Shown here: positions 6,001 to 46,431 of the stretch, piece after piece
Numbering within the stretch: position 1 is the first letter of the stretch
Layout of the letters: each line of letters opens with the position of its first letter
Virus record (IMG/VR): IMGVR_UViG_3300023371_000005
DNA from: a virus
Taxonomy: Duplodnaviria; Heunggongvirae; Uroviricota; Caudoviricetes
Reading direction: 5' to 3' (one strand)
DNA: 64,000 nucleotides
Program-made: the position numbers and the translations under genes
The notes under the pieces: generated by a model
What the model was told of the DNA's origin: nothing
Database searches by the model: none
Seen by the model: the letters and a program-made list of their open reading frames with translations, nothing else

Positions 6001-8312
6001 TAGAAGAATATGAATCTTCTCTTCAAGGATTAAATAAAGCTTATGTCGCAGGAGAAATTACTGAAGCAATGTATCAAGAAGGCTTAGAAGAAGTCCGTTC
6101 TGGTATTAGAGATAATTTAAGTTCTTTAGTTGAATTAGATAATACTATGAAAGAGTATTATAGTAAAACTCTAAATATGGCCTAGGAAGAATTAGCGAAG
6201 TATACTGACCGTATGGAGCATCAAACTGAAGTTCTAGAACATTATCAATCTTTAATGGAAATTCTTGGCAAAGAAACTGACTATAACGGTTTAGGAATTA
6301 TTCTTGAAGGTCAAGCAAAAACTATTGAAAATCAAATGAAGGTTGCTAAAGAAGCATATGCTATGTATCAATCTGAAGCAGATGAAAAGAAGAAATTGCT
6401 TGATTAGGCTATTGCCACAGGAAATACTGAAGCTGCAGAAGTATATCAGAAAGAATGGGAAGCTGCTAATGCTGCTGCCATGGAAGCTCAACAAGATATG
6501 CTTGATAAAACTGAAGAGTGGGCTGATGCATTACGAGCAATACTGGAGAATAAACTATCTGGTTTCGCTCAAAATTTAGAGAACGCTCTGACCGGAGGCA
6601 CATCTTTTGATACTTTAACTACTTCTATGGAGCGAGCAGCTAGTCTACAAGAAGAATATTTAACAACGACTAACCAAATTTATGAGACTAATAAGTTGAT
6701 GCGCGTTGCACAGCAAGCTATTGATAATTCCACTAGTAGTATTGCAAAGCAAAAACTAAAAGGATTTATTAATGAAACTAAGCAATTGCAAGATCAAACA
6801 AAGTTAAGTAAATACGAGTTAGAAATTCAGCAAGCAAAATATAATTTATTATTGGCTGAGATGGCTCTAGAAGATGCTCGTGATGCGAAAACTGTTGTTA
6901 GATTAAAGCGTGATAATGAAGGCAATCTTGGTTATGTATATACCGCAGATCAAGATAAGTTGGCCGAAGCGCAACAAGAGTTAGAAGACGCACAAAATAG
7001 TTTATATAATATTGGATTGGAAGGCGCTAATGAATATAGTGAAAAGTATCAGCAAACCATGAGTGAAATGTATGATACATTTACTGAACTCCAAGAGCAG
7101 TATTTGAGTGGTGAATTCGAAACTGAAGCTGAATATCAAGATGCTATGTTAAAAGCTAAGGAATATTATTATGAAAAATTGAAGAGTTATTCTTCTCTGC
7201 ATCAAATAGCATTGACTACAGATAGTCGAGTCATTGCAGATGCTTGGTCTTCTGATTATAGCGAAATGATTTTCAATACTGAAGATTGGATGCGCGCAGT
7301 TACTGAATATGTTGGTAATGTAAATCTTGCATTTGACGAATGGGAAGAAAATGTTGATACTATTACTAATGAGACTCTTGGACCAAATCTTGATACTCTT
7401 GAAGATAACGTTAAAGATATTACAGATGCTAATGATGCTTTAACTGATTCTATCGTAAAAGATGGCGGCGTTATTGACGCTATTGAGTCTGAATTGGATC
7501 AAGTTAGTGAATTGACTGGTAAATACGCTAATTTAAGACAATAGATTCAGGGACTGATTGCGGATCATGAAACTCTTATGGTACGTATTGGCAATGAACC
7601 TAATCCTTACACTCCTCCTGGAACTGGTACTTCTGGAAGTTCTTCTTCTAGCGGAGGTAGTAGTGGAAGTTCTAATTCTGGTAATTCTTCTAGTGGTAGT
7701 GGTCGAGGTTCTAGTACAGCAAGCACATCTTCTGGAACTAGTACTAAAGAAGCAAGTGCTCCAGAATATAGTGACACTACTAAGCAAGGAGTTGCTCTCG
7801 CAATTTGGAATGGTGGTTTTGGTTGGGGTAACGGTACTACCCGCCGCAACCGGTTGGATGAAAAAGGATTTGATCCCGAAGAAATCCAGCGTATTGTTGA
7901 TATTACTAATCCTAATGGAGATTGGCGTACTCGTTATGGAATTTCTGACTTAAGTAAGTATGCTTATTCTAGTTTTGATACTGGTGGTTATACTGGAGCT
8001 TGGGGTTCTTATGGTAAGTTCGCTATGTTACATGAAAAAGAATTGATTTTGAATCCAGGTGAAACTGAAAACTTTTTAGCAAGTATGGAAGTATTGCGTA
8101 GTATTATCAAGATGATTGACTTACAAAGCACTGCTTCTCAGCTAGGTGGATTGTTACATAGTCCTGGATATTACGCTCCTCAAACTTCTGAGGTATTAGA
8201 GCAAAATGTTCATATTGAAGCTAGCTTCCCTGAAGTAACTGATAGATATGAAATTGAAGCTGCTTTGACTTCTATCGTCAATCGTGCTTCTCAATACGCT
8301 AACCGTAAATAA
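1..8312 (+). CDS. Giant tail tape-measure-like protein, 5' partial, >2770 codons. One continuous frame with about 30 in-frame TAG read as sense, ending at TAA 8310-8312.
   Basis: All track ORFs 147..518, 1344..2174, 2190..2927, 3342..4613, 4650..5045, 5604..5810, 5814..6185, 6213..6407, 6480..7544 and 7578..8312 share one frame (start mod 3 = 0) and are separated only by single TAG codons. Long coiled-coil A/E/K-rich repeats. Hydrophobic TM-like segment (VGALWAALWPIALVVAGLTLVITALAAGV). Ser/Gly-rich linker near the C-terminus. Confidence 0.55.
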
Positions 8313-11400: not shown

Positions 11401-14013
11401 ACTGATGCTGATGGTAATGTAATCCATGAAGCTGATTCTGAAGTTACTGGTGTAACTTGGAAGATTATGTATTATAAAGAAAATGGCGATATTATGACTG
11501 CCACAGATTGGGGTCAATCACAATATGCTGTTTTACAAAGTTATATGCCTAAATTGAATGAGCGAAATTGCTTGATTCCTTGTCATATTTTCTTAGAAAA
11601 TAATGGTGGTACAATGGTTTATCCAGTTGTTACTTGTGAAGATGAGGATGCAGTAGTAATTTGGGCTCAGCCAATTTATTGTATGAAAAATAGATACGCT
11701 TCTGCTATGATCAATAAATGGGACGGTAGTCTAGTTATTGATGAAGAGAATGGAACTATTATGTCTACTATGGTAGGTGCGGGCCGCAAGAACTCAGAAA
11801 ACCAATTTGAAGGTGTTTTACTGGGCGATGTAAATACCGCCTCTGAAGATAATGCTACTGGCGTAGGCTTATATGGTTTCCACAAAGGAGCGCAAAGCTT
11901 TAATTTCAATGTTGATGGTACTGCTTTTATCGGTAAATCTGGTAGAGGTAGAATCAAGTTTGATGGAAATACAGGTACTATTACAAGTGCTTCGTATGAA
12001 CAAGCAAAAGATTCTTCTGGAATGAAAATTGATTTAGATGATGGTATCATTGACATGAAGGGAGCTAAAATTGATGCTACTACTGGTAAGTATGTAGCAG
12101 ATACTGCAAGTCATATTCATATTGATGTAAAAAGTCCTTATTTCAAGATTGATAGTGTTAAAGGTAAAACTTTAATGTTTATCGGCGGAGAGAAAGAAGG
12201 ATATTATTTACAATCTGACGAATATAATGAAACAAAATTTACTTTGAATGAGACTGAATCTAATGGCTTAACTACACCAACTACTGATACTACTGGTACC
12301 GGTATGCGATTGGATTTAAAAAATGGTACATTAGATGCATTTGATTTTTATTTAACTTCAAAGAATGTAATGTTAAATTCAAAAGATTCAAGTAAACCTT
12401 ATTTTGTTATTAAAGATAATTGTAACAATATGCTTATGCATATTGGTGGTACTAAGTTCTGGCTAAAATCTGCTGATTATAGTGAGACTGCAGCTGGTGA
12501 ACCTGAATCTGGTATGAAAATTGATTTATCTACTGGTAAAATTGATGCTTTTAATTTTTCATTAGTTTCTAGTAGAGTTAAATTGAGTACTAGCGGAACA
12601 GTAACAAAACCTTATTTAGAAATTGTTGGTAATGATATAACTTTAATGCATATTTCTGAAGCGGGACAATATATTCGTTCTAATACTTTTATTCGAGAGG
12701 CTGCTGGTACTCCTGGAACAGGTATGGAAATTAATCTTGGTACTGGAGAATTTACAGCTTATACATTTAATTTAAAAGCTGGTAATGCTTCTACTGGTCA
12801 ATTAAGAATTGATAGTAGTGCCGCACAATATCCTTTGTGGATAGGTACAATTGATAAAACCTATGATCCTGAAAATGATGATCCAGAAGATATAATTCCT
12901 AATTTTAAAGTTGATTGGGCCGGCAATTTTTATTCACAAGGTGGTAAATTTACCGGAGCAATTCATGCAACTAGCGGTACTCTTGGTAGTTTAACTGTTA
13001 GTGGTGTTTTGACAGGTGGTACTATTTCAGGTGCTACTATTGAAGGTGGCGTGTTAAAAGTAGGTCCAACCTCAGGAGAAACTGGTTATCAGTTATATGC
13101 TGATAACAAAGAGGTTGTAATTAAAAATGCAAAAATTATAAATTGTGATATTTAGAGCGGCGATGGAGCTCCCACAGGTACTGGTGGATTTAGTGTCACT
13201 CCAGCGGGTATTATGAAAGGTTTTGGTTGTAGTTTAACAAATGGATCTTTTACCACTTGTACTGTAATTGATTCTTTATATATCGGAGGAACTGTGGATG
13301 GAAAGACCGTTTCTGGCAATATTTATTTAAATGGTAATAATAAAATATATTTTGGTTCTGGTACTGGTAATTATTTATATTTTTCAGATGATGGTCGTGT
13401 TTCAGTAAGTGCTTTAACGGCTTTTTATGCTAATAAAATAAATGCTTCAAAAATAACTGCTTATCAAATTGTTGGTGCGCTAGAATCGAATGGCATGGAA
13501 GACTATAATACTCAAGTGTTATTTACTTCAGGAGCAAAAGTAAAAGGTCATTATTTATCAGCAGAAAATTCTTCTGGAGCTTTACTATTTTCAGCAGGTG
13601 ATAATACCGCTGGTTTATATGCTAGTAGCGTTTATTTAGGTGGTACTAAGACCGCTTCTGTTAATGTAGCAGATGGTAATGGTAGTGTTGTAAGCTTAGA
13701 GGCATATATAAAATCAATAATAAAAGATAGCGTTACAGTATCTGTGACTTCTGGAGCTAGTGATACAACAGTAACTGGTGGAACAGATGGGGTTTATACA
13801 GTAACAACAACAGATAATAAAACTGTTACAGCATCTTAGACAATTTGTTGTTATACATATACACAACCTTCTGGAGGTTATTTTTCTACTACTGAAACAG
13901 CTGGTAGTCCGCCATCAGGTTCTTACTATACTTATTGTACTAAAGATAAATCTCAAACAAAAGATGTTTCAACTTCTGGTACAATTCAAGTAGCTGTTAC
14001 TATTAAAGATTAA
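8434..14013 (+). CDS. Very large tail/baseplate structural protein, about 1860 aa, 5 in-frame TAG. GTG start; TTG 8428 or ATG 8509 are alternatives.
   Basis: Track ORFs 8509..9621, 9715..10389, 10504..13155 and 13213..13839 are all in frame 1 and joined by single TAGs (8488, 9619, 10387, 13153, 13837). The frame continues to TAA 14011-14013. Gly/Thr-rich beta-type repeats near the C-terminus. Confidence 0.55.
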
Positions 14014-14038
14014 AAAGGAGAAAAAGGAGATATACGTT

Positions 14039-14404
14039 ATGAAAATGACAAATTTAGAAATTTATAATACTGCAAGTCACCTTATGGAGGCTTTCAGTGA
14101 TGGTAATCAAAAATTACCTGTTAAATTGAATTTCTTCTTACAGAAGAATAAAAAGACTTTATTGGGTTTAGCTCAAGAAATTGAAGAGGCTCGTTTGAAT
14201 GTTGCTAAAGAACTCGGCGTTCAAAATGAAAATGGTGGATATACCGTCGAACCTGAAAATGTTGATAAGGCCCAAGCTGAATTAACTCAGTTGTTTAATA
14301 TTGAGCAAGAGGTTGACATTGCTATGATTAGTTATGATGATCTCGATCCTGGTATGACAATGACTGCTGCCCAGATGGAAGCATTATTGTTCATGATTAA
14401 GTAA
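14039..14404 (+). CDS. Hypothetical protein, 121 aa
   Basis: ATG preceded by AAAGGAG repeats. TAA stop. No TAG. Confidence 0.5.
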   Translation: MKMTNLEIYNTASHLMEAFSDGNQKLPVKLNFFLQKNKKTLLGLAQEIEEARLNVAKELGVQNENGGYTVEPENVDKAQAELTQLFNIEQEVDIAMISYDDLDPGMTMTAAQMEALLFMIK

Positions 14405-20210: not shown

Positions 20211-20595
20211 AAGGAGGACGGACGAATTGAAAGCTATTAGACAATTTAGATATTATGGATCTGATTTGATTAATAATGAATTTGCCAAAATAAATAATTA
20301 TCCAAATGATCCTTCTTTCCCAGAAAGATTGATCGGTGGTAATATTTTTAATGAATATAGCGCAATCACAAAGCTTGGTATTCAAGGTCGTCCAGGTACA
20401 ATGTTCTATTTGAATGATAGTAATTACCCAATCGTCATTGGCGAGACAGGTATTTATGAGATTGATTTAGAAGGTTATGGACAGATTTTCCGTATCAAAT
20501 TTGACGGTCCTTCATTGAAGTGGTACGATGAAGATGGCAAAGGCGACCGTCTTCTAATTGACATTGTATTTGAAGGGTCAGGTGGAAGCGCATGA
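20203..20595 (+). CDS. Hypothetical small structural protein. More likely initiates at TTG 20227, 8 nt after AGGAGG. TGA stop overlaps the next start (ATGA).
   Basis: ORF in frame 1. AGGAGG at 20213-20218. Stop TGA 20593-20595. Confidence 0.4.
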   Translation: MFKRRTDELKAIRQFRYYGSDLINNEFAKINNYPNDPSFPERLIGGNIFNEYSAITKLGIQGRPGTMFYLNDSNYPIVIGETGIYEIDLEGYGQIFRIKFDGPSLKWYDEDGKGDRLLIDIVFEGSGGSA

Positions 20596-34481: not shown

Positions 34482-34693
34482 TGACTAAAGATAGAAAATA
34501 CAGATACCTTGGCCGCAATGGTATTTTAGATACTAAGGTCCTTCTAGATGGTATCAATCATATCAATATCGTAACTATCAATGCTGATCCCGGCAAGATT
34601 TTAACTAATGGTGAGCGTACTCAGTACAGCGTCACTGTTGAAGAGGCCGAGGAACATAAGTGGAGAGAAATTACGGACAATACCAAAAAATAA
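34481..34693 (+). CDS. Small hypothetical protein, about 70 aa. ATG overlaps the upstream TAA.
   Basis: ATG 34481 is in frame with track ORF 34454..34693. AAGGAGAAGG precedes it. Confidence 0.4.
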   Translation: MTKDRKYRYLGRNGILDTKVLLDGINHINIVTINADPGKILTNGERTQYSVTVEEAEEHKWREITDNTKK

Positions 34694-34711
34694 GGTTATT
34701 TGATTTTTCAG

Positions 34712-34743
34712 TTCTAGGGAAGGGAAATTCCTTCCCTAGAACA
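34712..34743 (+). other. Perfect 13-bp hairpin GTTCTAGGGAAGG / CCTTCCCTAGAAC without a T-run
   Basis: Inverted repeat seen directly. No U-tract on either strand, so not an intrinsic terminator. Possible RNA stability or processing element. Confidence 0.4.
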
Positions 34744-34769
34744 ATATTATAAAGAAAGGAAGATATAAC

Positions 34770-36782
34770 GTGATTACAGTCTATAATAAAGATTATAAAG
34801 ACCAATATACCGTTCTATTCCAAGACGCATATAACGTTTTATTGGATATGCAGGCTAAAGATCCTCTTGGTGTAAAGATTAATCAGTCTGTTTTGGATAA
34901 AGGCAAAATCAGTTCTCTTGAAGAGTATTTTGCTCATATTGGTTATTTAGCAGATTATCACACTGAAAATATTAGAAATAATCCACCTTCTAATGTTGCA
35001 TATCAAAACTCTGCTAAGTTCTTGATGCTTCCTATGGATGAAAAATACGATGTCAAGTCTGGCTGTTTTTACATTGACCTAAATACTAGAAATATTCAGG
35101 TTCCTGATATTTATAGTAAATATGGTGTTAGTGTTACTGGTGATCAGTTAGCCGAGACTTTGATGTTTAAGGTTCCTCGCTATTTCGATTATACTGACTT
35201 GGCTTCTACTGAAATTTATGTTCAGTGGACTAACCCAGCAGGAGACGAAGGTGCTTCTCGTATTGTCTTAGTTGACTTTGAAGCAGAAGAAGGTTATCTA
35301 TTATTTGGTTGGCCTTTGACCAGTAAGGTTACTGTTGAAGGTAAAAATCCTTTGAAGTTCTCTGTTCGTTTCTTCGTAAGAAATGAAGAGAAAGAAATTC
35401 AGTACAGCTTAAATACTTTGGCTAGTTCTGTTATGATTAAGCAAGCTCTATATACTCATTTCAATGCTGACCTAGACATTGATGATCCATCTTTGTTGTT
35501 TGCGGCCGCAGTTGAAAATGGCGTTGACTCCAACATGACTCTACCTCAGATTCCTGTCTTCTTCTATGATTGGAAATTGGGTAATGACGAAGGAAAAGCT
35601 TTCTTAAAGAATGATGCAATTAAGCTATATGCTAGCGGTGCCACTGCTGATGCAGGTCAGTTGTGCTACAAGTGGTATTATACTCCTCGATTCATCGAAA
35701 ATAATGTCGCTGTAACTAAAGATACTGAAGAAGTTTTCAAGGCTTACGCTGATGTAGATACTATCTTCAAGCCCACAAATGATACTGAAAAAGAAGCTGG
35801 CAAGACTTATTATGTTGAAGAAATCGAAGCTGAAACTGGCAATCAGATTTATACTGTTTTCCTAGGCGATGCTTTTGAAGAGCCAGAAGAGGGAGAAGCT
35901 GCTCCTGTTTATTATGAGCAGGTAAGTGTTTATACCATTTTGGCTGTTGATGATGATGCTGAGGATTTGGGTGCTTCTACTGCGCTAGCACCTAATAAGA
36001 GATATTGGCCTCACGTCACCGGTGAATACAAGCTAACTTTGAACAATCAAGTTGGTAGTAGCAAATCTGCAGAGAGCGTTGATTCTTTGAAGTGCGTAAT
36101 TCCTTGTGTTGAAAAAGTTGAGTTCACCGCAGATTTACCTAAGAACAAAGTTCTATCTACTATTGGCGAAGGCGAAGAGACTGTTAGCCAGGCTATTTTA
36201 ACTGTTACTGTTGATGCAAATGACGGTGCTGAAAAGAGCTATGTATGGTATGAAGCTGCTTCTTCTGACGCTGAATATGTTGAAGTTCCCAATGCTTCTA
36301 ATGCTAGTATGACTGCTACTCAGCCAGGCTGGTATAAAGTTAAGGCTATCGGTACTTTGAACAGAGAGAGTATGTGGAAAGAAAGTTCTGAATGTAAGGT
36401 TACTTATCCTGCTGAAGCTCCTGAAATCGTCAAGTATCTAGTTGATGGTATCGAGTATCCTATTACAGATGATGACCCAACTTTAGAGAATGTTCCTGGC
36501 TTGAATACTCCTATTACCTTCAAGATTGAAATTGAAGAAATGAATGAGTTCCAGACTGACGGTGTCACTTACAAGTGGTTCCGCAATACTCCTAACCAGA
36601 ATGGTACTCCTATTAAGGATTCTGATCTAGATATTATTAGTGTAAATGGCAGTGAAATTACTGTTAAGCTATTAGCTAATAATGACTTGCCTGTTAATAT
36701 TGCCTTCTATTACTGTGAAATCACTAATACTCTAGCAGGAGAAGAAAAGAAAACTACTTCTAAGGTATTCCAGATTTCTTAA
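34770..36782 (+). CDS. Hypothetical structural protein, 670 aa. GTG start, no TAG.
   Basis: RBS AAAGGAAG. Continuous ORF. TAA stop. Confidence 0.5.
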   Translation: MITVYNKDYKDQYTVLFQDAYNVLLDMQAKDPLGVKINQSVLDKGKISSLEEYFAHIGYLADYHTENIRNNPPSNVAYQNSAKFLMLPMDEKYDVKSGCFYIDLNTRNIQVPDIYSKYGVSVTGDQLAETLMFKVPRYFDYTDLASTEIYVQWTNPAGDEGASRIVLVDFEAEEGYLLFGWPLTSKVTVEGKNPLKFSVRFFVRNEEKEIQYSLNTLASSVMIKQALYTHFNADLDIDDPSLLFAAAVENGVDSNMTLPQIPVFFYDWKLGNDEGKAFLKNDAIKLYASGATADAGQLCYKWYYTPRFIENNVAVTKDTEEVFKAYADVDTIFKPTNDTEKEAGKTYYVEEIEAETGNQIYTVFLGDAFEEPEEGEAAPVYYEQVSVYTILAVDDDAEDLGASTALAPNKRYWPHVTGEYKLTLNNQVGSSKSAESVDSLKCVIPCVEKVEFTADLPKNKVLSTIGEGEETVSQAILTVTVDANDGAEKSYVWYEAASSDAEYVEVPNASNASMTATQPGWYKVKAIGTLNRESMWKESSECKVTYPAEAPEIVKYLVDGIEYPITDDDPTLENVPGLNTPITFKIEIEEMNEFQTDGVTYKWFRNTPNQNGTPIKDSDLDIISVNGSEITVKLLANNDLPVNIAFYYCEITNTLAGEEKKTTSKVFQIS

Positions 36783-39737: not shown

Positions 39738-41912
39738 ATGGCAACTTATGATTGCACTATAAATGGTGTTCGTGCAAGAGTTGCTGCCACTGGAGTCTAC
39801 TGGTTTGGACCCTCTGGCGGCAACCTAGGCACTTCTACAACTGACGATGAAGGTTGGGGCGTTAATGATGGAGAAGATTTCTTCGGTGGAAATGTCAACC
39901 CCATGGCTTGTGATCCAAGCGGTAATAGTAAATTTACAGTTGCTATCAAAGTAACTACTCCAAATTTATCAAATGTTACTATTAGTGCTTTAACAATTAC
40001 AGTTCAAGGTTTTGACCATACTTACAAAGGTCTTACTTCTACTTATCCATTATATGCTAGTTTAAGAACTACTTCTACAAGTAGTAGTAGTGATACTTAC
40101 AGCACTTTTAGAAATTACGCAATTGGAAGTGAGGCTAGTACCAGTTCTCTTACTGGAAATTCTCTAAATCTTAATACTTGGTCTCCTACTTTCTACGGAT
40201 CTTTTTCCCCAAATACTTCATATTATTTATTCTTATATACTAAATCTACAAGCCAAATTTATGGTTTTTATCACAGTGGCGCAATTTGCACTGATGCTTA
40301 TGTTACTTATACTCAAAATGCAGCATCTTATACTGTAAGTTTGAGTAAAGGTACTGGTATCAGTTCTGTAAGTGGCGGTGGCACTTATACAGAAGGCGAT
40401 TTAGTAACCATTAGAGCTACTCCATCTTCTGGATATAGCTTTGTAAACTGGACAGGTTCAGAAACTTCAACCGCAAACCCTTATAGTTTTTATATTTATG
40501 GTAATAAGTCTTATACTGCTAACGCAAGTTCTGCGACTTATTTAGTTCAATATAAAGCTGGTACTTATGGTTCTGGTACAGAGAGTTCTGTTTATAAAAC
40601 TCATGGTACAAATTTAACCTTAAAAGGAGTGCAATTCACTCGTTCTGGTTATACTCAAACTGATTGGGCTTCTGACGCCGCAGGTACGGTATGGGTAAAT
40701 ACCTTAAATGGAACTTATCAGACAGATGCTCCTGCAACTTTTTATCCATATTGGACACCCAATGTATATACATTAACCATTAATCCAAATGGTGGTACAA
40801 TGTATAACGGTGACAATACTACTTCAAGTCCTTTTACCACAGAATTCTCTTATGGTACTCTAACTTATATTGGTAATTTAGATAGTTACGAAGGATACTA
40901 GCCAGACAATAAGCCAACAAAACCTGGTTATACTTGTACTGGATTTACTTTCTCTGGAGGCTCAGGTCAATAGAATACTAGTGGTGCTACTTTCTATTTT
41001 ATGGGCGATAATCCAGCCGCCGCAATGGTTACTGCTTCTGATACTCGCTCTTGGGTTTTCAATGGTAATTATGCTGGCAATGTAACTGCGACTGCAGAAT
41101 GGGTTGGAAATACTTATACTGTTGTTTATAATGCTAATGGTGGTACTGGTTCTATGGCTAATACATCTCATACTTATGGTGAAGGCTCTAGTTTAAGAAC
41201 TAATAGTTTTACCCATTCTGGTTATACCTTTACCGGATGGAATACCAAAGAAGATGGAACAGGAACTACATATGCTAATAATGCTGTAGTAACTGATTTA
41301 ACAACTACTGCCGGAGGAACTGTTACTTTATACGCTCAATGGGGTGAAGCCACTTATACAGTTATTTTCAATCTAAATGGTGGTAGTATTCAAAGTGGTG
41401 ATTTTAGTAATATGACTTGTGCTCGTAATACTAATTATACCATTCCTACTGGAACCATTGCAGCCAATGGCTTAATCTTCTTAGGATGGTCTACATCATC
41501 TTCTGCTACGACTGCGACTTATGAAGCTGGAGATACTTTCAATAATATTGGAGCCGCAGGCGCAACAGTTATTTTATATGCAGTTTGGGATACAAAAGAG
41601 TTTACAATTAAATATCATGACAATAGCAATGGTAATACATTAAGTGTTAGTTGTATTCCTGCAGCTACCACCAATACTTTTAGAACTCTTCCTTCTGGAT
41701 GGACGAAGGATGGCTATGAAGCTATTGGTTGGAGTAGATCTGCATCTGCCACTTCTCCTGACTATCGATTTGGTCAAGGATTTGTTGATGATTTAGGCGT
41801 AGCAGATGGAGCTACTTTAAATTTATATGTTGTTTGGACCCTGTAGCAACCATGGACTCTGACTCAATTATATATGTATATTGATTCTAGAGATTCATTT
41901 GTTCAATTCTAA
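39738..41912 (+). CDS. Fiber/adhesin protein with 4 Listeria-Bacteroides repeat domains (Flg_new type). About 724 aa, 3 in-frame TAG.
   Basis: Track ORFs 39738..40901 and 41001..41846 are in frame 0. TAGs at 40899, about 40971 and 41844. The frame continues to TAA 41910-41912. Repeats of the form TYTVxFNxNGG...GYTFTGW...TLYAxW. Confidence 0.6.
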
Positions 41913-41933: not shown

Positions 41934-42341
41934 ATGGACTGGATGGTTATGTTATATCAAATTTTTGAACTTTGCGTTATTCCTCTCTTGGGTGTATTGA
42001 CTATGTACTTAGTTCAATTCATTAAAATGAAGAGCCAAGAAATCGCAGATAAGACTGATAGTGAATTAGCAGATAAGTACATTCAAATGCTTGCTGATAC
42101 TATCACTACTTGCGTTATCGCAACTAATCAGACTTATGTTGAATCTTTGAAGAAGCAAGGTAAGTTTGATGCAGAAGCTCAGAAGGAAGCTTTCAATTTG
42201 ACTTATAATGCAGTTATGTCTGTATTAACTGATGAAGCTAAGCATTATTTGGCTTCCATTTATGGCGACTTGACCGCCTACATTACTAGTCGTATTGAGG
42301 CTGAGGTTAATGTAAGTAAGATTGTTCCTGTTACTGAGTAA
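41934..42341 (+). CDS. Small membrane protein with one N-terminal TM helix, 135 aa. Possible holin-like protein.
   Basis: AAGGGGGA RBS. Hydrophobic segment VIPLLGVLTMYLVQFI. TAA stop. Confidence 0.4.
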   Translation: MDWMVMLYQIFELCVIPLLGVLTMYLVQFIKMKSQEIADKTDSELADKYIQMLADTITTCVIATNQTYVESLKKQGKFDAEAQKEAFNLTYNAVMSVLTDEAKHYLASIYGDLTAYITSRIEAEVNVSKIVPVTE

Positions 42342-42351
42342 TTGCGGAGAT

Positions 42352-42394
42352 ACCCGAAAAATACCTAAAAAGTATTTTTCGGGTATTTTTTTTT
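42352..42394 (+). terminator. Strong rho-independent terminator ending the structural operon
   Basis: ACCCGAAAAATAC-ctaaaaa-GTATTTTTCGGGT 13-bp perfect stem followed by a T9 run. Confidence 0.7.
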
Positions 42395-42436
42395 GTCATT
42401 CGCAGGACCTCAAAAAGTTATGTCCCGGTATTCTTA

Positions 42437-42541
42437 CGGTCCATTTTTGGTTATTTTTCATTCCAGTCGCGGTCCATTTTCGGTTAGGGTTCGGTCCTCG
42501 TTTGGACAAATTAGGGTAATTTTTCGGTCCTAATTTTCATA
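42437..42541 (+). repeat. Array of 4 direct repeats sharing the core CGGTCC. Core starts at 42437, 42470, 42492 and 42525, i.e. spacings of 33, 22 and 33 nt.
   Basis: Units: CGGTCCATTTTTGGTTA, CGGTCCATTTTCGGTTA, CGGTCCTCGTTTGGACA, CGGTCCTAATTTTCATA. Located in a 250-nt non-coding region between a terminator and the next gene. Confidence 0.6.
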
Positions 42542-42595
42542 AAGCTATGAGGGGATTGGATAAAATATTTTTTGTATGGAGAGGAGACCTTACAT

Positions 42596-43030
42596 ATGTA
42601 CTCAAACTATAATTATTATCCACAACAACCCTAGCAAGTCGCCCAATAGCAACCAGTGTACCAACCATTGTCTTACTTACGACAGGCGCCGCCGCAAGCA
42701 GGACTGAAAGGACGCTTGGTAGCATCATTGGAAGAGGCCCGTGCAACCTCTATTGACTTTGATGGTTCTGTATTCTACTTCCCAGATTTAGCGAACAGAC
42801 GAATCTACACAAAACAAATAAATATGGATGGCACCGCATCACTGTGTGTGTATGAATTAAGGGAAATGCCCGTTTAGAGAGAAGAGAGCGGTTCTGTTCC
42901 ATCCGTTGAGAAATTTGTAACGAGAGAAGAGTTTGAGCAGGTCCTGGCGCAACTACAAATGCTCCAGAAGCCAACCGAGCCGGCCGTATCTGCCCCCGCA
43001 AAAGAAAAAGTAGAATTAATGTCATTCTAA
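42596..43030 (+). CDS. Gln-rich hypothetical protein, about 144 aa, 3 in-frame TAG. Two of them fall inside the poly-Q run.
   Basis: ATG 42596 preceded by GGAGAGGAG. Reads MYSNYNYYPQQP-TAG-QVAQ-TAG-QPVYQ. Third TAG at 42875. TAA 43028-43030. Confidence 0.55.
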
Positions 43031-43040
43031 GGAGGTATGA

Positions 43041-43295
43041 ATGATGTATCCAGTAAACCCAAATAAATTAATCCAAATGATTAAATCCGGGCAAAATCCT
43101 CAGCAATTGATGTTATCAATTTTGAAAGGACAAGCCTATGATAATCCCCTCGGAAAAAATCTCCTAAATTTAGCTCAATCTGGTCGCACTGTCGAATTAG
43201 AGAAAGTAATTCGCAACCTTTACGCCCAGTAGGGCGGTCAAAATTTCGACCAGGAGTTCGAAGCCTTTAAACGTGCATTAGGCTACAACACTTAA
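43041..43295 (+). CDS. Small hypothetical protein, about 84 aa, one in-frame TAG (43230)
   Basis: TAAGGAGG RBS. ORF continues through the TAG to TAA 43293-43295. Confidence 0.5.
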
Positions 43296-43316
43296 AATTT
43301 AAGGAGGAAAAAAATT

Positions 43317-44033
43317 ATGTTCAATGGAAAAGGTTATAATTTATCTGATATCGCTGCTGTAACCCGTGGAAGTGGTACTGGTTTCGGTGGAGATGGCGAC
43401 GGCGCATGGTGGCTGTTACTGTTATTCCTGTTTGCGGGATGGGGTAATGGTGGCTATGGCGGCGGCCTTGGCGCAGGTAACGCTCGCGACGCTGTTTCTT
43501 ATGGCTTTGATATCAACAATCTAGAAAATGGAATCCGTGGACTAGAGCATGGTCTATGCGATGGTTTCTATGACATGAACACTTCTTTGCTAACTGGTTT
43601 TGGTAATGTTACTATGGGTAATATGCAGAACACTAACGCCATTATGGGCCGTTTGTGTGATATGTCCGCAGAGCAAGCTGCTTGTTGCTGCGAAACTCAG
43701 CGCTTGATTGAGAGAGGTTTGTGCGAAGTCAACTATAATATCTTGACTCAATCTAACGCAACTAATACTAATATTGCCAATGCCGCGAGAGATATTATTG
43801 AAAACAATAATAATGGTGTTCGCTCTATCTTAGACTTCTTGACTCAGGATAAGATTGCTACTTTGCAGGCTGAAAATCAGGCTTTGCGCTTGACCGCTTC
43901 TCAGCAAGCTCAGAACGCTTTCTTGATCGACCAGTTAGGAACTAAGGCTCCTATTCCTGCATACATGGTAGCTAATCCATATGCTAGCTATGGTTGTGGT
44001 ATGAACTACTATGCTGGATGTGGCTGCAACTAA
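43317..44033 (+). CDS. Gly-rich membrane protein with a Cys-rich C-terminus, 238 aa
   Basis: AAGGAGGA RBS. GGDGDGAWWLLLLFLFAGWGNGGYGGGLGAGN TM segment flanked by Gly runs. CCCE and YGCGMNYYAGCGCN motifs. Confidence 0.5.
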   Translation: MFNGKGYNLSDIAAVTRGSGTGFGGDGDGAWWLLLLFLFAGWGNGGYGGGLGAGNARDAVSYGFDINNLENGIRGLEHGLCDGFYDMNTSLLTGFGNVTMGNMQNTNAIMGRLCDMSAEQAACCCETQRLIERGLCEVNYNILTQSNATNTNIANAARDIIENNNNGVRSILDFLTQDKIATLQAENQALRLTASQQAQNAFLIDQLGTKAPIPAYMVANPYASYGCGMNYYAGCGCN

Positions 44034-44052
44034 TATCTAAGGAGGAAAGTAT

Positions 44053-44475
44053 ATGGAAATTATTGCTAATGCTGTTCAAACAGTTCCCGCAAATCAGAAT
44101 GTTTATTTCACTGATTCTGTTACTTCTGGAAATTATTCTATCGAGCATCGTGATGGTAGTGGATTGGTGACTCTTCGCGGAGTCACCAATACTCAGTGCC
44201 GCGCCCGTTTTAGAGTACATTTCGGCGCAAATGTCGCGATTGCAGAAGGTGGCACCGTCGGACCAATTTCCTTAGCTATCTCTTTGGATGGTGAAGCGGT
44301 TCCAGCTACAATTATGACTGTCACCCCTGCCGCAGTTGGAGATTTCTTCAATGTGAGCGCATCTATCTTTATTGATATTCCAAAAGGATGCTGCTCTCAT
44401 GTGGCCGTGAAGAATATTTCTACTCAGCCAATTGATGTACAAAATGCAAATCTAATTGCTGAACGTTCTGCGTAA
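44053..44475 (+). CDS. Hypothetical beta-rich protein, 140 aa. Loosely C1q/TNF or BclA C-terminal-like.
   Basis: AAGGAGG RBS. TAA stop. Confidence 0.4.
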   Translation: MEIIANAVQTVPANQNVYFTDSVTSGNYSIEHRDGSGLVTLRGVTNTQCRARFRVHFGANVAIAEGGTVGPISLAISLDGEAVPATIMTVTPAAVGDFFNVSASIFIDIPKGCCSHVAVKNISTQPIDVQNANLIAERSA

Positions 44476-44486
44476 GGAGGGATAGT

Positions 44487-45068
44487 ATGGACCACGAAAG
44501 ATTAAAACACATGAAAGAAACTTTAATGTGTGCTGTTGAAGTACAATTATGTGATTTGGGTGAAGTAGATACTAAAGAGCTTGGAGAAGCTATTGATATG
44601 ATTAAAGATTTAGAAGAGGCAATCTACTATTGCACCGTTACAGAAGCTATGAACAACTCTTCACACGAAATGGAGTTTGAAATGAAAAAAGGCGGCCATC
44701 ACCAGTAGGAAAATGGTGACAGCCGCATGTATTATGACAGAAATCGTAGAAGTGATGGTACATTCTATGCTGACAATGATAATTCTTCTTCTTCTGGAAT
44801 GAATAGTTCTAATGGAAGAAATTATTACGATGACCCAGGTATGTGGCGCGATGAGCGCGAAGGCCGCAGTTATAATAGTCGTAGAATGTATATGGAAGCC
44901 AAGGATATGAAACGAGATAAAGCTACTCAATTGCGTGAGTTAGAAAAGTATATGCAAGAGCTATCTCTGGATATTACCGAAATGATTGCGGATGCTTCTC
45001 CAGAAGAAAAAGCATATCTTGAAAAGAAGATAACCGCATTGGCTTCTAAAATTGGTCAAATGAAATGA
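44487..45068 (+). CDS. Hypothetical charged protein, about 193 aa, one in-frame TAG (44706). TGA stop followed one codon later by TAA.
   Basis: Track ORFs 44487..44708 and 44727..45068 are in the same frame. AAGGAGGG RBS. Confidence 0.5.
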
Positions 45069-45376
45069 TTATAAATGGCGTGCGCTGGCGGGTCCGGTTG
45101 GTCTCGCCAGCCCATCCAATGCTACTTACGCCTTGGAGAACTCACGCTCTTGGAGTTTGTGATAAAGTCACATAGACTATATGTATAGACAAGACTCTTT
45201 CCCCTCAACAACTAAAAGAAGTCTTATGTCATGAATTAGTTCATGCTTTTATGTTTAGCTATGCTGTGGATTTATCATATGATGAAGAGGAAATGGTAGC
45301 AGAGCTTATGACTGAATATGGAGAAGATATATTAGAACGGACAAACGCGATTTATAATGGTATAAAAATGAAATAA
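45065..45376 (+). CDS. Small HExxH metallopeptidase-like protein (ImmA/IrrE or SprT-like fold), 104 aa, one in-frame TAG
   Basis: Frame 2 reading: MIINGVRWRVRLVSPAHPMLLTPWRTHALGVCDKVT-TAG-TICIDKTLSPQQLKEVLCHELVHAFMFSYAVD... The motif I.ID..L....LKEVLCHELVHAF follows the ImmA-type pattern. Start ATG overlaps the end of the upstream gene. TAA 45374-45376. Confidence 0.45.
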
Positions 45377-45419
45377 GGGTCGATTATGAATAATCATAAT
45401 CGACCCCTTATTTTTTTTT
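45377..45419. terminator. Bidirectional rho-independent terminator at the convergence of the + and - arms
   Basis: GGGTCGATTATGA-ataa-TCATAATCGACCC 13-bp perfect stem. T-run on the + side and a T-rich tract on the - side. Confidence 0.7.
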
Positions 45420-45422
45420 GGT

Positions 45423-45881
45423 TTAATCAACAACGTCGTCATTATCAACTTTTAAGTCTAAAGCCATAGCCTTATCATAATAGATTTTAGCTTGACCGTT
45501 GCCACCCAAACCAGTATATAATTTATAGAACTCGGTTAACTGTTCCATCTGTGCAGGAGTAATATATCCCTGAGCTAAGAATCCTTTGCATAATTGTACT
45601 AAGCGGAAACGATAAGAAGCAATAATCAGATTCATATGAGTCTTCTCGATGTTCTCAGTTTCTCTGATATATTTTCTTAGTTCCTCTAATTCCTGATATA
45701 CTGGTTCTAAATGGATCTCAATGGTGTCCTCGACATGTTGTCTCTCTTGGGCGGCGGCTAATTCTCTAGCGTTTCTTAATTCACGATTCAATTCACGAGT
45801 TTTGAACTTAGCATAACCAATTACACCGGCACTGATAAGAGCAAACAAAATCTCCATACCCCACTCAGCTAATAATTCCAT
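45423..45881 (-). CDS. Hypothetical protein with an N-terminal TM helix, 152 aa
   Basis: Continuous ORF. ILFALISAGVIGYAKF hydrophobic segment. RBS GGGGGA lies inside the hairpin at 45890-45940. Confidence 0.45.
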   Translation of the reverse strand: MELLAEWGMEILFALISAGVIGYAKFKTRELNRELRNARELAAAQERQHVEDTIEIHLEPVYQELEELRKYIRETENIEKTHMNLIIASYRFRLVQLCKGFLAQGYITPAQMEQLTEFYKLYTGLGGNGQAKIYYDKAMALDLKVDNDDVVD

Positions 45882-45945: not shown

Positions 45946-46431
45946 TTAGGACCAATCGAATACTTCGACCTTATTTTTGGTATAATGAGCGCCAATACAA
46001 ATAGCATCACATTCATCCTGTGTTGGTTTTACATTATAGGTTTTTACAACCCAATCTTGTGCGGCTTTCTTCTAGGCTGGACGATCTTTTCCCTTGATAC
46101 CAAGAGAAGATTTCCAGACGGTAGAAAGAACGGCGGTTCGAGGCATTTTCATTTCAACAAATAATTCATGTAAAACGCCAAATACCTCAGCCAATGCTTT
46201 AAAGGTGGCTACATTATTGACAACATTATTTTGAAGTTGAATATCTTCAAAGACGACTTCGTCAATATCAAACTTCTCAATTAAACCAATAACTTCCTTG
46301 CGAATAAAGTGAAGTCTATCTCCAACATCGGTTTGAGTTGCGGAGAACTTGCCATAATTGTAAAGTTCACCATCATCAAATACTGCCCAACCAGTCACGC
46401 GACTGGCCTGGTCCAATGCAAGAGTTCTCAC
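45946..46431 (-). CDS. ruvC: RuvC-type Holliday junction resolvase, about 161 aa, with one in-frame TAG (46074-46072) upstream of the catalytic C-terminal motif
   Basis: N-terminus MRTLALDQASRVTGWAVFDDGEL (GTG start overlapping the dut stop). After the TAG the frame continues as KKAAQDWVVKTYNVKPTQDECDAICIGAHY...*. The DxxDAxxIxxH pattern matches the RuvC C-terminal acidic/His motif. Stop TAA 45948-45946. Confidence 0.65.

Follow-up and report, generated by a model that had tools for sequence, protein, structure and literature searches.

The stretch of DNA that was analysed, here called the window, comprises 64,000 nucleotides of a virus genome of the Caudoviricetes. When TAG is translated, positions 42596-45376 are filled by six ORFs on the + strand, g1 to g6 (Table 1), and all descriptive points that the earlier note had made about these six genes are borne out with TAG read as Gln. 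The intergenic gaps amount to 10-21 nt, and g5 and g6 overlap in an ATGA, through which g6 is translationally coupled to g5. Ribosome-binding sites of the AAGGAGG type (Shine-Dalgarno) precede g1 to g5, and the start of g6 lies inside the overlap.

Table 1. Features of the cassette and its flanks (positions in the window).
Feature	Position	Strand	Description
Holin, context gene closing the tail/lysis operon	41934..42341	+	135 aa; one N-terminal TM segment, helical C-terminal part
Intrinsic terminator ending the structural/holin operon	42346..42390	+	19-bp stem, 7-nt loop, T-run
Leader/operator-promoter region	42405..42549	+	From repeat finder; conserved element
g1	42596-43030	+	144 aa; TAG codons 13, 18, 94
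g2	43041-43295	+	84 aa; TAG codon 64; small helical protein, NPQQ motif
g3	43317-44033	+	238 aa; no TAG; Gly-rich N-terminus
g4	44053-44475	+	140 aa; no TAG
g5	44487-45068	+	193 aa; TAG codon 74
g6	45065-45376	+	103 aa; TAG codon 37; HELVH motif
Bidirectional intrinsic terminator	45377..45408/45419	both	13-15-bp stems and T-runs on each strand

The cassette is laid out as an independent transcription unit. Upstream it is set off by the terminator of the structural/holin operon, a layout that recurs in relatives, and downstream the bidirectional terminator separates it from the convergent early/replication genes of the - strand. The leader contains four CGGTCC boxes (at 42437, 42470, 42492 and 42525, with spacings of 33, 22 and 33 nt), GGACC in inverted orientation at 42405, and further the box TTGGACAAA (42502-42510) and TTTTCATAAAGCTATG, which is -10-like (42534-42549). 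CGGTCCNNNTTT has three matches, all of them in the leader, compared with 0.17 expected. No canonical sigma-70 promoter was found in the leader, and a promoter-like TTGGACAAA ... TTTTCATATAATAATG element is kept across ten type-A loci. The separate regulation proposed in the earlier note is thus supported by the terminator together with a leader of ~200 nt, whose repeated boxes and promoter-like element are conserved in relatives. The leader was also considered as a structured or known RNA, which was rejected, as it gave neither an Rfam match nor an unusual RNA fold.

The recoding of TAG in the cassette is real. Four of the six genes (g1, g2, g5 and g6) contain TAG in frame, which supports the proposed expression under the recoded regime; homology is continuous across every TAG of g1, g2 and g6, standard-code homologues are uninterrupted, and the TAG at codon 74 of g5 corresponds to Gln in a relative with 94% identity. 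The late genes of the + strand include a frame of 2,760 codons that contains 27 TAGs, compared with zero TAGs in the genes of the - strand. A suppressor tRNA was not found within the window. Across relatives, each of the cassette genes is found with recoded codons, the recoding of a locus being judged by in-frame stops inside the cassette orthologues, as a crude ORF-sum test was too noisy. Recoding is a mark of late genes, namely those for structure and lysis (bioRxiv 10.1101/2021.08.26.457843). Genes that depend on the suppression of TAG at a late stage are unlikely to serve host takeover, which the earlier note had also considered. The dN/dS values of the six genes are 0.03-0.49 against the related locus L004 and 0.10-0.38 against L008, and therefore all six are real genes under purifying selection and not chance ORFs. 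Individual values are 0.03-0.10 for g6, 0.08-0.14 for g5, ~0.25 for g2 and 0.16-0.38 for g1.

Among the six proteins, only g3 has a membrane-targeting feature, a hydrophobic anchor (residues 29-43) that is bracketed by Gly/Trp and has a Gly-zipper-like flank; the hydrophobic span measures only 16 residues on average, and by the positive-inside rule the charge gives no clear orientation. Behind it follow a long helix (66-207, ~140 residues) with an invariant CCC at 123-125 and a Pro/Cys-rich, near-invariant C-terminal tail (PxPAY...GCGC) ending with GCGCN. The AF2 model, whose pLDDT of 59 denotes low confidence and was too low for a fold search, has a helix at 31-40 and a single helix at 66-207. 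A classical coiled coil is unsupported because the hydropathy periodicity of the helix is 3.6-3.7 rather than 3.5, where the power is at shuffle level, and a canonical heptad coiled coil was accordingly rejected. An i-spanin was rejected likewise, since no lipobox or signal peptide was visible in the six sequences, the loci are nearly all from Bacillota MAGs and the periodicity is not heptad. g3 matches phrog_16490 (E 7e-34) and belongs to a family with at least 8,000 search matches that has neither a Pfam domain nor a name. Homologues are present in Clostridium phage CPD1 (3e-36) and in Bacteroides phage C3_41T2LP (1e-43), where the depositor labelled the protein “viral fiber”. In g1, g2, g4, g5 and g6, read by eye, no signal peptide is evident, so that an extracellular complex would need lysis or another export route.

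The neighboring g4 has the fold of a stand-alone BclA/ExsF (C1q-TNF) type jelly roll, which is ten-stranded and superposable on BclA-CTD, C1q and TNF, and in this point the loose resemblance of the beta-rich protein to C1q/TNF or BclA C-terminal folds held up. No Pfam match was obtained for g4 at E<=1, with the gathering scores of BclA_C, C1q and TNF not reached, and only two of 33 family members matched BclA_C, at a sub-threshold best E of 0.002. The motifs P-x-GCC and VQNANL are invariant. With a mean column identity of 53% versus 32% for g3, g4 is the most conserved component, and its family, which comprises at least 848 clusters at 50% identity and at least 8,000 matches, is again without a Pfam domain or name. 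Among the best 150 cluster representatives the lengths are 83-196 aa and g4 is never fused to a stalk. The closest known system is ExsFA/BxpB (ExsF; PDB 7r1m, 9h3d), which forms stand-alone TNF/C1q-like trimers in the exosporium of the Bacillus cereus group. The C-terminal domain of BclA or F-BclA (BclA_C PF18573; PDB 1wck, 9h38) is also close; however, the chain of BclA also contains a leader at the N-terminus and a long collagen stalk of GXY, whereas g4 has neither, lacking GXY repeats and a match to the NCBIfam exosporium-leader. Further differences to BclA are the invariant GCC motif and the length of at most 196 aa among the best 150 cluster representatives.

The last gene, g6, encodes a minimal HExxH zincin that is M78/selecase-like and a predicted protease. 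The residues H56, E57, H60, E75 and E76 are the same in all 16 sequences compared, and the zinc-site residues align to the HExxH...EE of selecase. The ImmA-type motif noted earlier was recovered as Pfam Peptidase_M78 (PF06114), whose score of 23.4 bits just exceeds the gathering cut-off of 22, a marginal match that spans only 36 residues; matches to DUF6782 and SprT-like were sub-threshold, and phrog_1233 and phrog_87, both “metallo-protease”, matched as well. By profile the best PDB relative is the selecase MJ1213, although the similarity is weak (E 0.013); the value for IrrE is 0.63. Like ImmA/IrrE and the minigluzincins (selecase MJ1213, PDB 4qhf-4qhj), g6 combines HExxH with a downstream Glu, and like the latter it is a single domain of ~100-110 aa, its profile aligning along most of selecase. 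ImmA/IrrE, however, adjoin and cleave an HTH repressor, whereas g6 stands behind the non-HTH, disordered g5 in a late operon: no HTH (XRE/ImmR-type) partner lies beside it, its neighbors being g5 and the terminator, and the type-A module contains no HTH gene.

Of the remaining proteins, g1 combines a Gln-rich N-terminus, in which two Gln are TAG-encoded, with a conserved core of ~55 aa and a C-terminal helix. It matches phrog_21718 (E 3e-12), has a homolog in CPD1 (E 1e-21) and was found in 21 loci by tblastn, or in 47 of 69 when the divergent clusters c2 and c12 are added (hhalign 99.9% and 99.2%, respectively). g2 is likewise present in 21 loci, with a CPD1 homolog at E 3e-10. In temperate relatives its slot is occupied by c4, a Gln-rich protein of 75 aa, for which homology to g2 was not demonstrable (hhalign 2.4%). 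In g5, conserved helical N- and C-terminal domains surround an Asn/Ser/Arg/Tyr-rich low-complexity linker; it occurs in 28 loci, including all 26 that have g6, and shares its N-domain with c1 of the temperate modules (hhalign 91.6%). PDB searches with single sequences and profiles returned nothing for g1, g3, g4 and g5. Scans of all six proteins against Pfam, PHROGs, NCBIfam and PADLOC yielded only PHROGs of unknown function and the M78/“metallo-protease” matches of g6, and a literature search found no functional description of the cassette genes.

The cassette is a conserved operon that is horizontally mobile in gut phages. Of 69 related loci, about 20 have the genes in the identical order g1 to g6, even where identity falls to 25-50%, and g3 and g4 are neighbors in 62 of the 69; the six genes are therefore one operon and not a grab-bag of unrelated passengers, in which sense the “morons” considered in the earlier note are not supported. 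Nearly all of these loci come from Bacillota MAGs, and they include TAG-recoded, TGA-recoded and standard-code phages, from ~40-kb temperate phages, where the module lies beside integrases, to contigs of up to ~200 kb. Among type-A relatives the module is constant and not sporadic. A holin homolog is located directly upstream of g1 in nine related loci; a tenth locus, L043, has the match on the other strand. Twelve loci have the module at a prophage end, between lysis genes and an opposite-strand integrase, two (L059 and L062) have it between a 975-aa tail gene and a lysin, and in temperate versions a small sigma-r4-like HTH gene is located upstream. In these temperate relatives the place of g6 is filled by c0, a candidate peptidase unrelated to g6. 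The two are mutually exclusive: across 70 loci, 26 have only c0, 26 only g6, 18 neither and none both. c0 has an invariant D-C...H...D pattern and is labelled “putative peptidase” by some depositors; neither Pfam nor PDB searches supported its identity as a peptidase, and it does not resemble CHAP. Among cultured phages, Butyrivibrio phage Ceridwen has the type-B form, whereas Clostridium phage CPD1 and Bacteroides phage C3_41T2LP contain g3-centred variants; the hosts of phages with the module are Gram-positive as well as Gram-negative. In these two distant variants the neighbors are recombination genes, not lysis genes, and other small beta proteins occupy the g4 slot; homology of the positional counterparts to g4, g5 and g6 was undetectable, and the Bacteroides-phage module ends with a third, PolyVal-type HExxH protein.

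Our best explanation, which we hold only tentatively, is that the cassette is a late accessory operon making a protease-matured, Cys-linked g3-g4 complex at the membrane of the infected cell. The six genes would act as a self-contained mobile operon that is transcribed alone late in infection and translated only when TAG is read as Gln. Its core would be the Cys-rich helical stalk of g3 with the hydrophobic anchor, together with g4 as a trimeric jelly roll that may dock onto g3, most plausibly on the Pro/Cys-rich C-terminal tail. The model for such docking is ExsF, a stand-alone TNF-like trimer which docks terminal Pro-rich stalk peptides, clamping the leaders of BclA and F-Anchor, and BclA is in addition proteolytically trimmed (PMC12357932). 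g4 is stand-alone, and the adjacent g3 has a conserved Pro-rich tail that it may bind in its inter-subunit clefts as ExsF would. The Cys clusters (CCC and GCGC of g3, GCC of g4) might hold the complex together through disulfides or a metal that they share, the disordered g5 and the two small Gln-rich proteins, g1 and g2, could be assembly partners or substrates, and the mini-zincin g6 may mature one of the components. We infer both the location and the biological role of the complex: it would act at the membrane when the holin does, or near that time, as a late/lysis accessory rather than in the virion. In favor of this explanation are the coherence and mobility of the operon, its own transcription unit, the fold and stand-alone state of g4, the ExsF precedent, the invariant Cys/Pro motifs of g3, a peptidase slot with g6, c0 or the PolyVal-type protein, late expression, and the canonical lysins beside the module. 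Several observations speak against it: a jelly-roll knob with a helical stalk is equally a signature of virion fibres, the distant modules stand beside recombination genes and have other small beta proteins in the g4 slot, g3 has a short hydrophobic span, a helix off the coiled-coil periodicity and a low-confidence model, the other five proteins show no evident signal peptide, and the searches did not support c0 as a peptidase.

It had also been suggested that the cassette is a non-canonical lysis module which supplies the missing endolysin, with g6 as wall-degrading enzyme and g3 as holin-like membrane effector, and this we consider very improbable. As stated in the earlier note, the window is without a recognisable endolysin: of the sizeable ORFs that were scanned, none had a Pfam domain of a peptidoglycan hydrolase, the set comprising all but residues 1-2454 of the tape measure, the 146-aa ORF at 13964-14404, NrdD and the Pol III alpha subunit, the last two being recognised solely through precomputed Pfam hits of a relative. 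Nor was an endolysin found within 10 kb to the right of the window, where all genes are replication genes; an SPbeta-like replication module is present in the window phage. The possible holin-like protein at 41934 is a holin by annotation (phrog_13712 “holin”, E 8.8e-35), and the position of the module directly after a holin, in nine type-A loci and in the window, would fit a lysis function, as would the membrane-type anchor of g3 with its Gly-zipper-like flank. However, the window is only about a third of a genome of probably near 180-200 kb, and in related recoded phages the lysis genes are scattered over several modules (bioRxiv 10.1101/2021.08.26.457843). Searches of g1 to g6 against Pfam, PHROGs and NCBIfam gave no amidase, muramidase, CHAP/NlpC-P60, M15/M23 or transglycosylase domain. 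g6 resembles regulatory and processing zincins (M78, selecase) and not peptidoglycan hydrolases, and it is present in only 26 of the 70 loci, being absent from the 26 modules that contain c0. Moreover, the module coexists with canonical lysins in standard-code relatives, including temperate ones, where CHAP+PG_binding_1, GH73 and PGRP lysins adjoin it. Since canonical endolysins occur alongside the module and c0 replaces g6 in temperate relatives, a non-canonical lysin is unlikely; the claims that the cassette replaces the endolysin or that the HExxH protein is the lytic enzyme are not supported, and the cassette is unlikely to be the missing endolysin of this phage.

A role in the virion is possible, if rather doubtful. 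Here the g3 stalk and the g4 knob would form a head or tail fibre, a whisker or a decoration, or g3 would be a packaged ejection protein, with a hydrophobic segment, while g1, g2 and g5 would be adaptors or chaperones and g6 a maturation protease that cuts off the hydrophobic N-terminal part. Tail/lysis genes in the same direction directly precede the module, in L059 and L062 even between the tail gene and the lysin, its recoded codons are present as in structural genes, the hosts are both Gram-positive and Gram-negative, and the depositor label of the Bacteroides-phage g3 homolog points to a fibre; besides, PolyVal-type zincins are known to process packaged proteins (PMC5512222). On the other hand, the module has a terminator and a leader of its own as insulation and is portable across unrelated phage backbones, although a docking site on the virion would be needed, and in contrast to receptor-binding knobs g4 is the most conserved and not the most variable component, never fused to a stalk among the best 150 cluster representatives. 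Its site next to the integrase at the prophage end in 12 loci, and among early-type genes in CPD1 and the Bacteroides phage, argues against the virion as well. Improbable, in our view, is a moron for lysogenic conversion or superinfection exclusion, i.e., a membrane-anchored g3-g4 fibre on lysogens or infected cells which masks a receptor, blocks DNA entry or alters adhesion, as a surface layer like the exosporium nap. The own leader and terminators, the location between lysis genes and opposite-strand integrase in 12 loci, the dedicated HTH gene of the temperate versions and a parts list like that of the BclA/ExsF/Cys-rich exosporium assemblies are consistent with it. Against it stands that recoded phages need stop-codon suppression for every cassette gene, which leaves no expression in a prophage that is quiescent or at an early stage of infection. 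Furthermore, a membrane-targeting feature is present in g3 only, and the PADLOC defence/exclusion models gave zero matches at E<=0.1 for all six proteins. Butyrivibrio, one host of the module, is not known to sporulate, which counts against this reading as well.

Returning to the late membrane complex as preferred reading, a more speculative and rather unlikely extension is that the module represents a new phage machine, widespread in gut Bacillota phages and at least one Bacteroides phage, in which an interchangeable peptidase matures g3, as a membrane-inserting, Cys-rich helical protein, and an ExsF-like hub (g4 or, in its slot, other small beta proteins with Cys), which then build a covalently locked envelope or particle structure for the last step of infection. 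If true, the structure might serve to release the progeny, to control lysis, or to protect or target the new particles, and the module would have to be ranked with holins, endolysins and spanins as a functional class of its own. The co-travel of g3 and g4 across phage sizes and three genetic codes suggests an important function that is missed by current phage annotation; both families are large and entirely unnamed, and the literature search found no paper on them. The exosporium-like parts list of TNF-like hub, Cys-rich partner and trimming peptidase provides a concrete, testable assembly hypothesis, and the recoding field gains with the cassette a well-defined late operon that is non-structural and that must rely on TAG suppression to be expressed.

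The cassette proteins can be compared with accessory proteins from the lysis cassettes of Bacillus prophages, XhlA and XepA of PBSX and YomS of SPbeta, which are likewise small and poorly understood and are encoded between the tail genes and the holin/lysin of Bacillota phages. XhlA is helical and anchored in the membrane, and XepA/YomS form oligomers of beta-sandwiches, XepA being a pentameric double beta-sandwich and not a TNF-like jelly roll; no sequence relationship was detected, as the Pfam families XhlA and XepA were not found in the six cassette proteins. With phage morons the cassette has in common that it is a terminator-bounded unit with its own leader where the late region ends, which in temperate relatives is beside the integrase. 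It differs from them as a co-evolving operon of six genes, not one passenger gene, that is conserved in type-A relatives and needs late recoded translation. As three cultured phages harbor the module or a g3-centred variant, it is experimentally tractable.

The cassette proves to be a single operon of six genes, conserved, mobile and expressed late, whose products have recognisable folds, and it is more coherent than the earlier note supposed. When TAG is read through, six small ORFs (g1-g6) fill the interval and match the list that had been drawn up from the sequence, including the claim that four of them contain TAG. The genes are separated by 10-21 nt, g1-g5 are each preceded by an AAGGAGG-type Shine-Dalgarno sequence, and the start codon of g6 lies inside an ATGA overlap with g5. 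Sequence comparison supports TAG as Gln within the cassette, because codon 74 (TAG) of g5 corresponds to Gln in a relative of 94% identity, homology of g1, g2 and g6 is continuous over every TAG, and the g6 homolog of the standard-code Dulem virus 39 is uninterrupted. The dN/dS values of the six genes range from 0.03 to 0.49 against the related locus L004 and from 0.10 to 0.38 against the related locus L008, and therefore none of them is a chance ORF. Across 41934-45376 the dS against L004 is mosaic, with 0.02-0.06 for g1, g2 and g4 and 0.15-0.31 for the holin, g3, g5 and g6, which suggests recent recombination of gene-sized operon segments.

Coordinates of the features in the window and in related loci
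Feature	Coordinates	Strand	Remarks
Late region of a large tailed phage	30-45376	+	Firmicutes-type ribosome-binding sites
Tape-measure protein	30-8312	+	2,760-codon frame, 27 in-frame TAGs; extends beyond the left window edge
146-aa ORF	13964-14404
Apparent intergenic gaps	20211-20591; 34482-34847
Fibre-like protein	39738-41912		724 aa, 3 TAG
Terminator 3' of holin	42346-42390		19-bp stem
CGGTCC boxes in leader	42437, 42470, 42492, 42525		four direct copies; inverted copy at 42405
g1, g2	within 42596-45376	+	144 aa, 3 TAG; 84 aa, 1 TAG
g3, g4	within 42596-45376	+	238 aa, 0 TAG; 140 aa, 0 TAG
g5, g6	within 42596-45376	+	193 aa, 1 TAG; 103 aa, 1 TAG
Bidirectional terminator closing the cassette	45377-45408		plus T-runs
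Early/replication genes	from 45423	-	no in-frame TAG
TM protein (cluster c10)	45423-45881	-	152 aa
RuvC-like resolvase	46072-46431	-	called as 119 aa
Module of Clostridium perfringens phage CPD1 (MH999280)	L072:2906-5928		g1, g2, HNH-like insertion, g3, 125-aa protein, c9
Module of Bacteroides phage C3_41T2LP (OR296439)	L073:4057-7302		g3, KCCG-motif protein, RD/RG-repeat protein, HExxH peptidase
c0, example	L030:6027-6404		126 aa; type-B loci with c0 modules: L001, L024, L028-L069
Sigma-r4-like protein, examples	L030:5736-5948; L063:5715-5921		about 70 aa

PHROG profiles without assigned function are matched by g1 (3e-12), g3 (7e-34), g4 (1e-54) and g6 (4e-14). Using tblastn, g4 was found in 16 deposited phage records, which include Dulem viruses from the lemur gut and the isolate Butyrivibrio phage Ceridwen (MN882553); Dulem virus 39 carries g2-g3-g4-g5-g6 in order, and Dulem virus 33 and Ceridwen carry g3-g4. 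When an alignment of g4 was run against species-representative genomes, 63 loci were obtained, almost all from Bacillota gut MAGs and including a few obviously mis-binned contigs. Synteny in related phages, which had been proposed as a check, is indeed conserved: the gene order is constant and g3 lies immediately 5' of g4 in 62 of 69 loci, most of the others being short or truncated contigs, while g5 is present in 28, g6 in 25, and g2 and g1 in 21 each. A holin homolog stands directly 5' of g1 in nine loci and on the opposite strand in the related locus L043. Orthologs occur under TAG recoding, TGA recoding (loci L020 and L022) and the standard code, and in recoded relatives the recoded codons are present even in g3 and g4. 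In L020 and L022 in-frame TGA replaces TAG in g3, g5 and g6, thus the same operon is found under all three codes.

Two architectures were separated by clustering the flanking ORFs and by profile comparison. Type A comprises the window and 25 loci from large phages, many of them recoded, with the order holin, terminator, g1-g6 and convergent RuvC/dUTPase genes. Type B comprises 26 standard-code loci, several with an integrase, in the order lysin (CHAP+PG_binding_1), 70-aa sigma-r4-like HTH protein, c0, g1, c4, g3, g4, c1 and c9. Here g1 was identified by hhalign (99.9%), the N-domain of c1 is that of g5 (91.6%), and c4 is a 75-aa Gln-rich protein occupying the g2 slot. An integrase on the opposite strand follows the type-B module in 12 loci; in loci L059 and L062 the module has a 975-aa tail gene on one side and the lysin on the other. 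The HExxH protein g6 and c0 are mutually exclusive (both in 0, c0 only in 26, g6 only in 26, neither in 18 loci). c0, located 5'-terminally in the modules of temperate phages, has an invariant D-C...H...D pattern and a near-invariant CPxC; no family assignment was obtained for it, and its homologs occur in Prevotella phages and in Tsamsa-like Bacillus phages, where some depositors labelled it "putative peptidase". The protein of about 70 aa, which weakly resembles sigma-70 region 4 (E 0.0055), lies 5' of c0 in nine type-B loci, often between c0 and the lysin, and is a candidate for a dedicated module regulator.

More distant versions in cultured phages were found by a g3 profile search. The CPD1 module matches g1 (1e-21), g2 (3e-10), g3 (3e-36) and c9 (3e-8), and its g4 slot is occupied by another protein, 125 aa long, that carries a CNRRCNCC cluster at its N-terminus. 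In C3_41T2LP, g3 (1e-43) has the same anchor, CCC and tail and is followed by a 180-aa KCCG-motif protein, Val/Thr/Pro-rich and beta-rich by eye, then by a charged protein with RD/RG repeats and an HExxH peptidase of the PolyVal type. No homology was detectable between these positional counterparts and g4, g5 or g6. g3 is therefore the most widespread component of the module; its small beta partner with Cys residues seems to be exchangeable, and so does the peptidase. Both modules adjoin recombination/replication genes; the association with lysis genes is not absolute, and likewise that with Gram-positive hosts.

The g3 protein has a conserved hydrophobic stretch bracketed by Trp/Gly (mean uncharged span 16 residues), whose flanking charges give no topology call, and one long predicted helix (66-207) with an amphipathic periodicity of 3.6-3.7 residues, not heptad; CCC is invariant and the tail PxPAY..P.P..CC..GCGC near-invariant. 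For g6, the HExxH/ImmA-type motif holds up, with H56, E57, H60, E75 and E76 invariant and a score slightly over the Pfam M78 cut-off; among solved structures the minigluzincin selecase (110 aa, E 0.013) comes closest, and IrrE ranks lower. g5 consists of two small helical domains and an Asn/Ser/Arg/Tyr-rich linker and is always accompanied by g6. Searches with g1, g2 and g5 gave no known relative, and defense-system models matched none of the six proteins.

The claim of separate regulation is reasonable, since the cassette has its own terminators, including the predicted bidirectional one at its end, and a leader of about 200 nt (42391-42595) with repeated boxes. The leader contains no canonical sigma-70 promoter, Rfam match or unusual fold. 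The spacings of its CGGTCC boxes (33, 22 and 33 nt) correspond to whole helical turns, and the extended motif has three matches against 0.17 expected, all in the leader and none elsewhere in the 64 kb. Three of the boxes are kept in the close relative L004; more distant relatives keep the terminator-leader layout with other repeated boxes in the same place, and relatives share a TTGGACAAA ... TTTTCATATAATAATG element 45-60 nt 5' of the start codon. The boxes look like an operator array for some regulator, and the cassette is probably regulated via a phage-specific factor.

A literature search gave no description of the six-gene operon. Its parts would be a stand-alone TNF-like putative trimer (g4), an elongated, Cys-rich partner whose Pro-rich terminal peptide is conserved (g3) and a dedicated, replaceable peptidase. 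This parts list parallels that of the exosporium, where the Pro-rich leaders of both F-Anchor and BclA are held by trimers of ExsF and BclA undergoes proteolytic trimming (PMC12357932). By this analogy we favor a g3-g4 complex that may be protease-matured and Cys-locked, assisted by g1, g2 and g5. Should this complex turn out to represent a new functional class among the late machinery of phages, the finding would be considerably more interesting.

Where such a complex might act can be proposed only tentatively, the membrane of the infected cell being our leading suggestion: this would fit the anchor of g3, the moron-like insulation of the module and its portability over unrelated phage backbones, and also a g4 that is the most conserved part, not the most variable. 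That the complex is instead a component of the virion is somewhat less likely; late recoded expression, the fibre-knob fold of g4, the location of some modules inside the late region and the presence of modules in phages of Gram-positive and Gram-negative hosts alike speak for it. A role in lysogenic conversion or exclusion appears improbable. The earlier note proposed the cassette as a candidate non-canonical lysis module. Its observation that the window has no recognisable endolysin stands, as no peptidoglycan-hydrolase domain was found in any sizeable ORF scanned (all but tape-measure residues 1-2454, the 146-aa ORF, NrdD and Pol III alpha). However, canonical lysins adjoin the same module in relatives and half of the modules are without g6, which makes this role very improbable.

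The phage is TAG-recoded in its late genes, as has been described for clades of recoded phages from the gut (bioRxiv 10.1101/2021.08.26.457843); a tRNA search of the 64-kb window found none. The tape-measure protein has a Ser/Gly-rich low-complexity segment and, close to the C-terminus, a cell-wall-binding repeat of the CW_7 type, and is followed by very large tail and fibre proteins with LRR_5 and Flg_new repeats. The last gene of the late region before the cassette encodes a 135-aa holin (phrog_13712, E 9e-35). The final fibre-like protein 5' of it has Flg_new/Flg_new_2 (Listeria-Bacteroides repeat) domains, about 195 N-terminal residues without assignment and no recognisable lysin. The minus-strand genes encode RuvC-like, dUTPase, NrdD/NrdG, guanylate kinase, Pol III alpha, UvrD-like helicase, RecJ-like and DnaB proteins, NrdD and Pol III alpha being identified via a relative's precomputed Pfam hits alone. 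In relatives, the 10 kb beyond the window's right edge encode SPbeta-type YorF and YorH, ThyA, DHFR, ligase and GyrA. The window's DnaB is present on contigs of 183 kb to >200 kb and indexed in 63 blocks of the collection, and near-identical and related g4 and g3 proteins occur on 190-207-kb contigs from dozens of samples; therefore the whole genome is probably near 180-200 kb and the window about one third of a prevalent gut phage. The 152-aa protein converging on the cassette terminator begins with a TM segment, and its body is helical (phrog_4105/4257, function not annotated), and its position is kept in about ten type-A loci. The RuvC-like resolvase has 161-165 aa in L004 and the related locus L016, and the shorter call could mean that the gene is truncated or that the start codon or the calling differs. 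ORF calling accepted ATG starts only; both apparent intergenic gaps have a coding look, the first opening with AAGGAGG and then TTG, and the genes at 20592 and 34848 probably start further upstream, or small extra genes exist.
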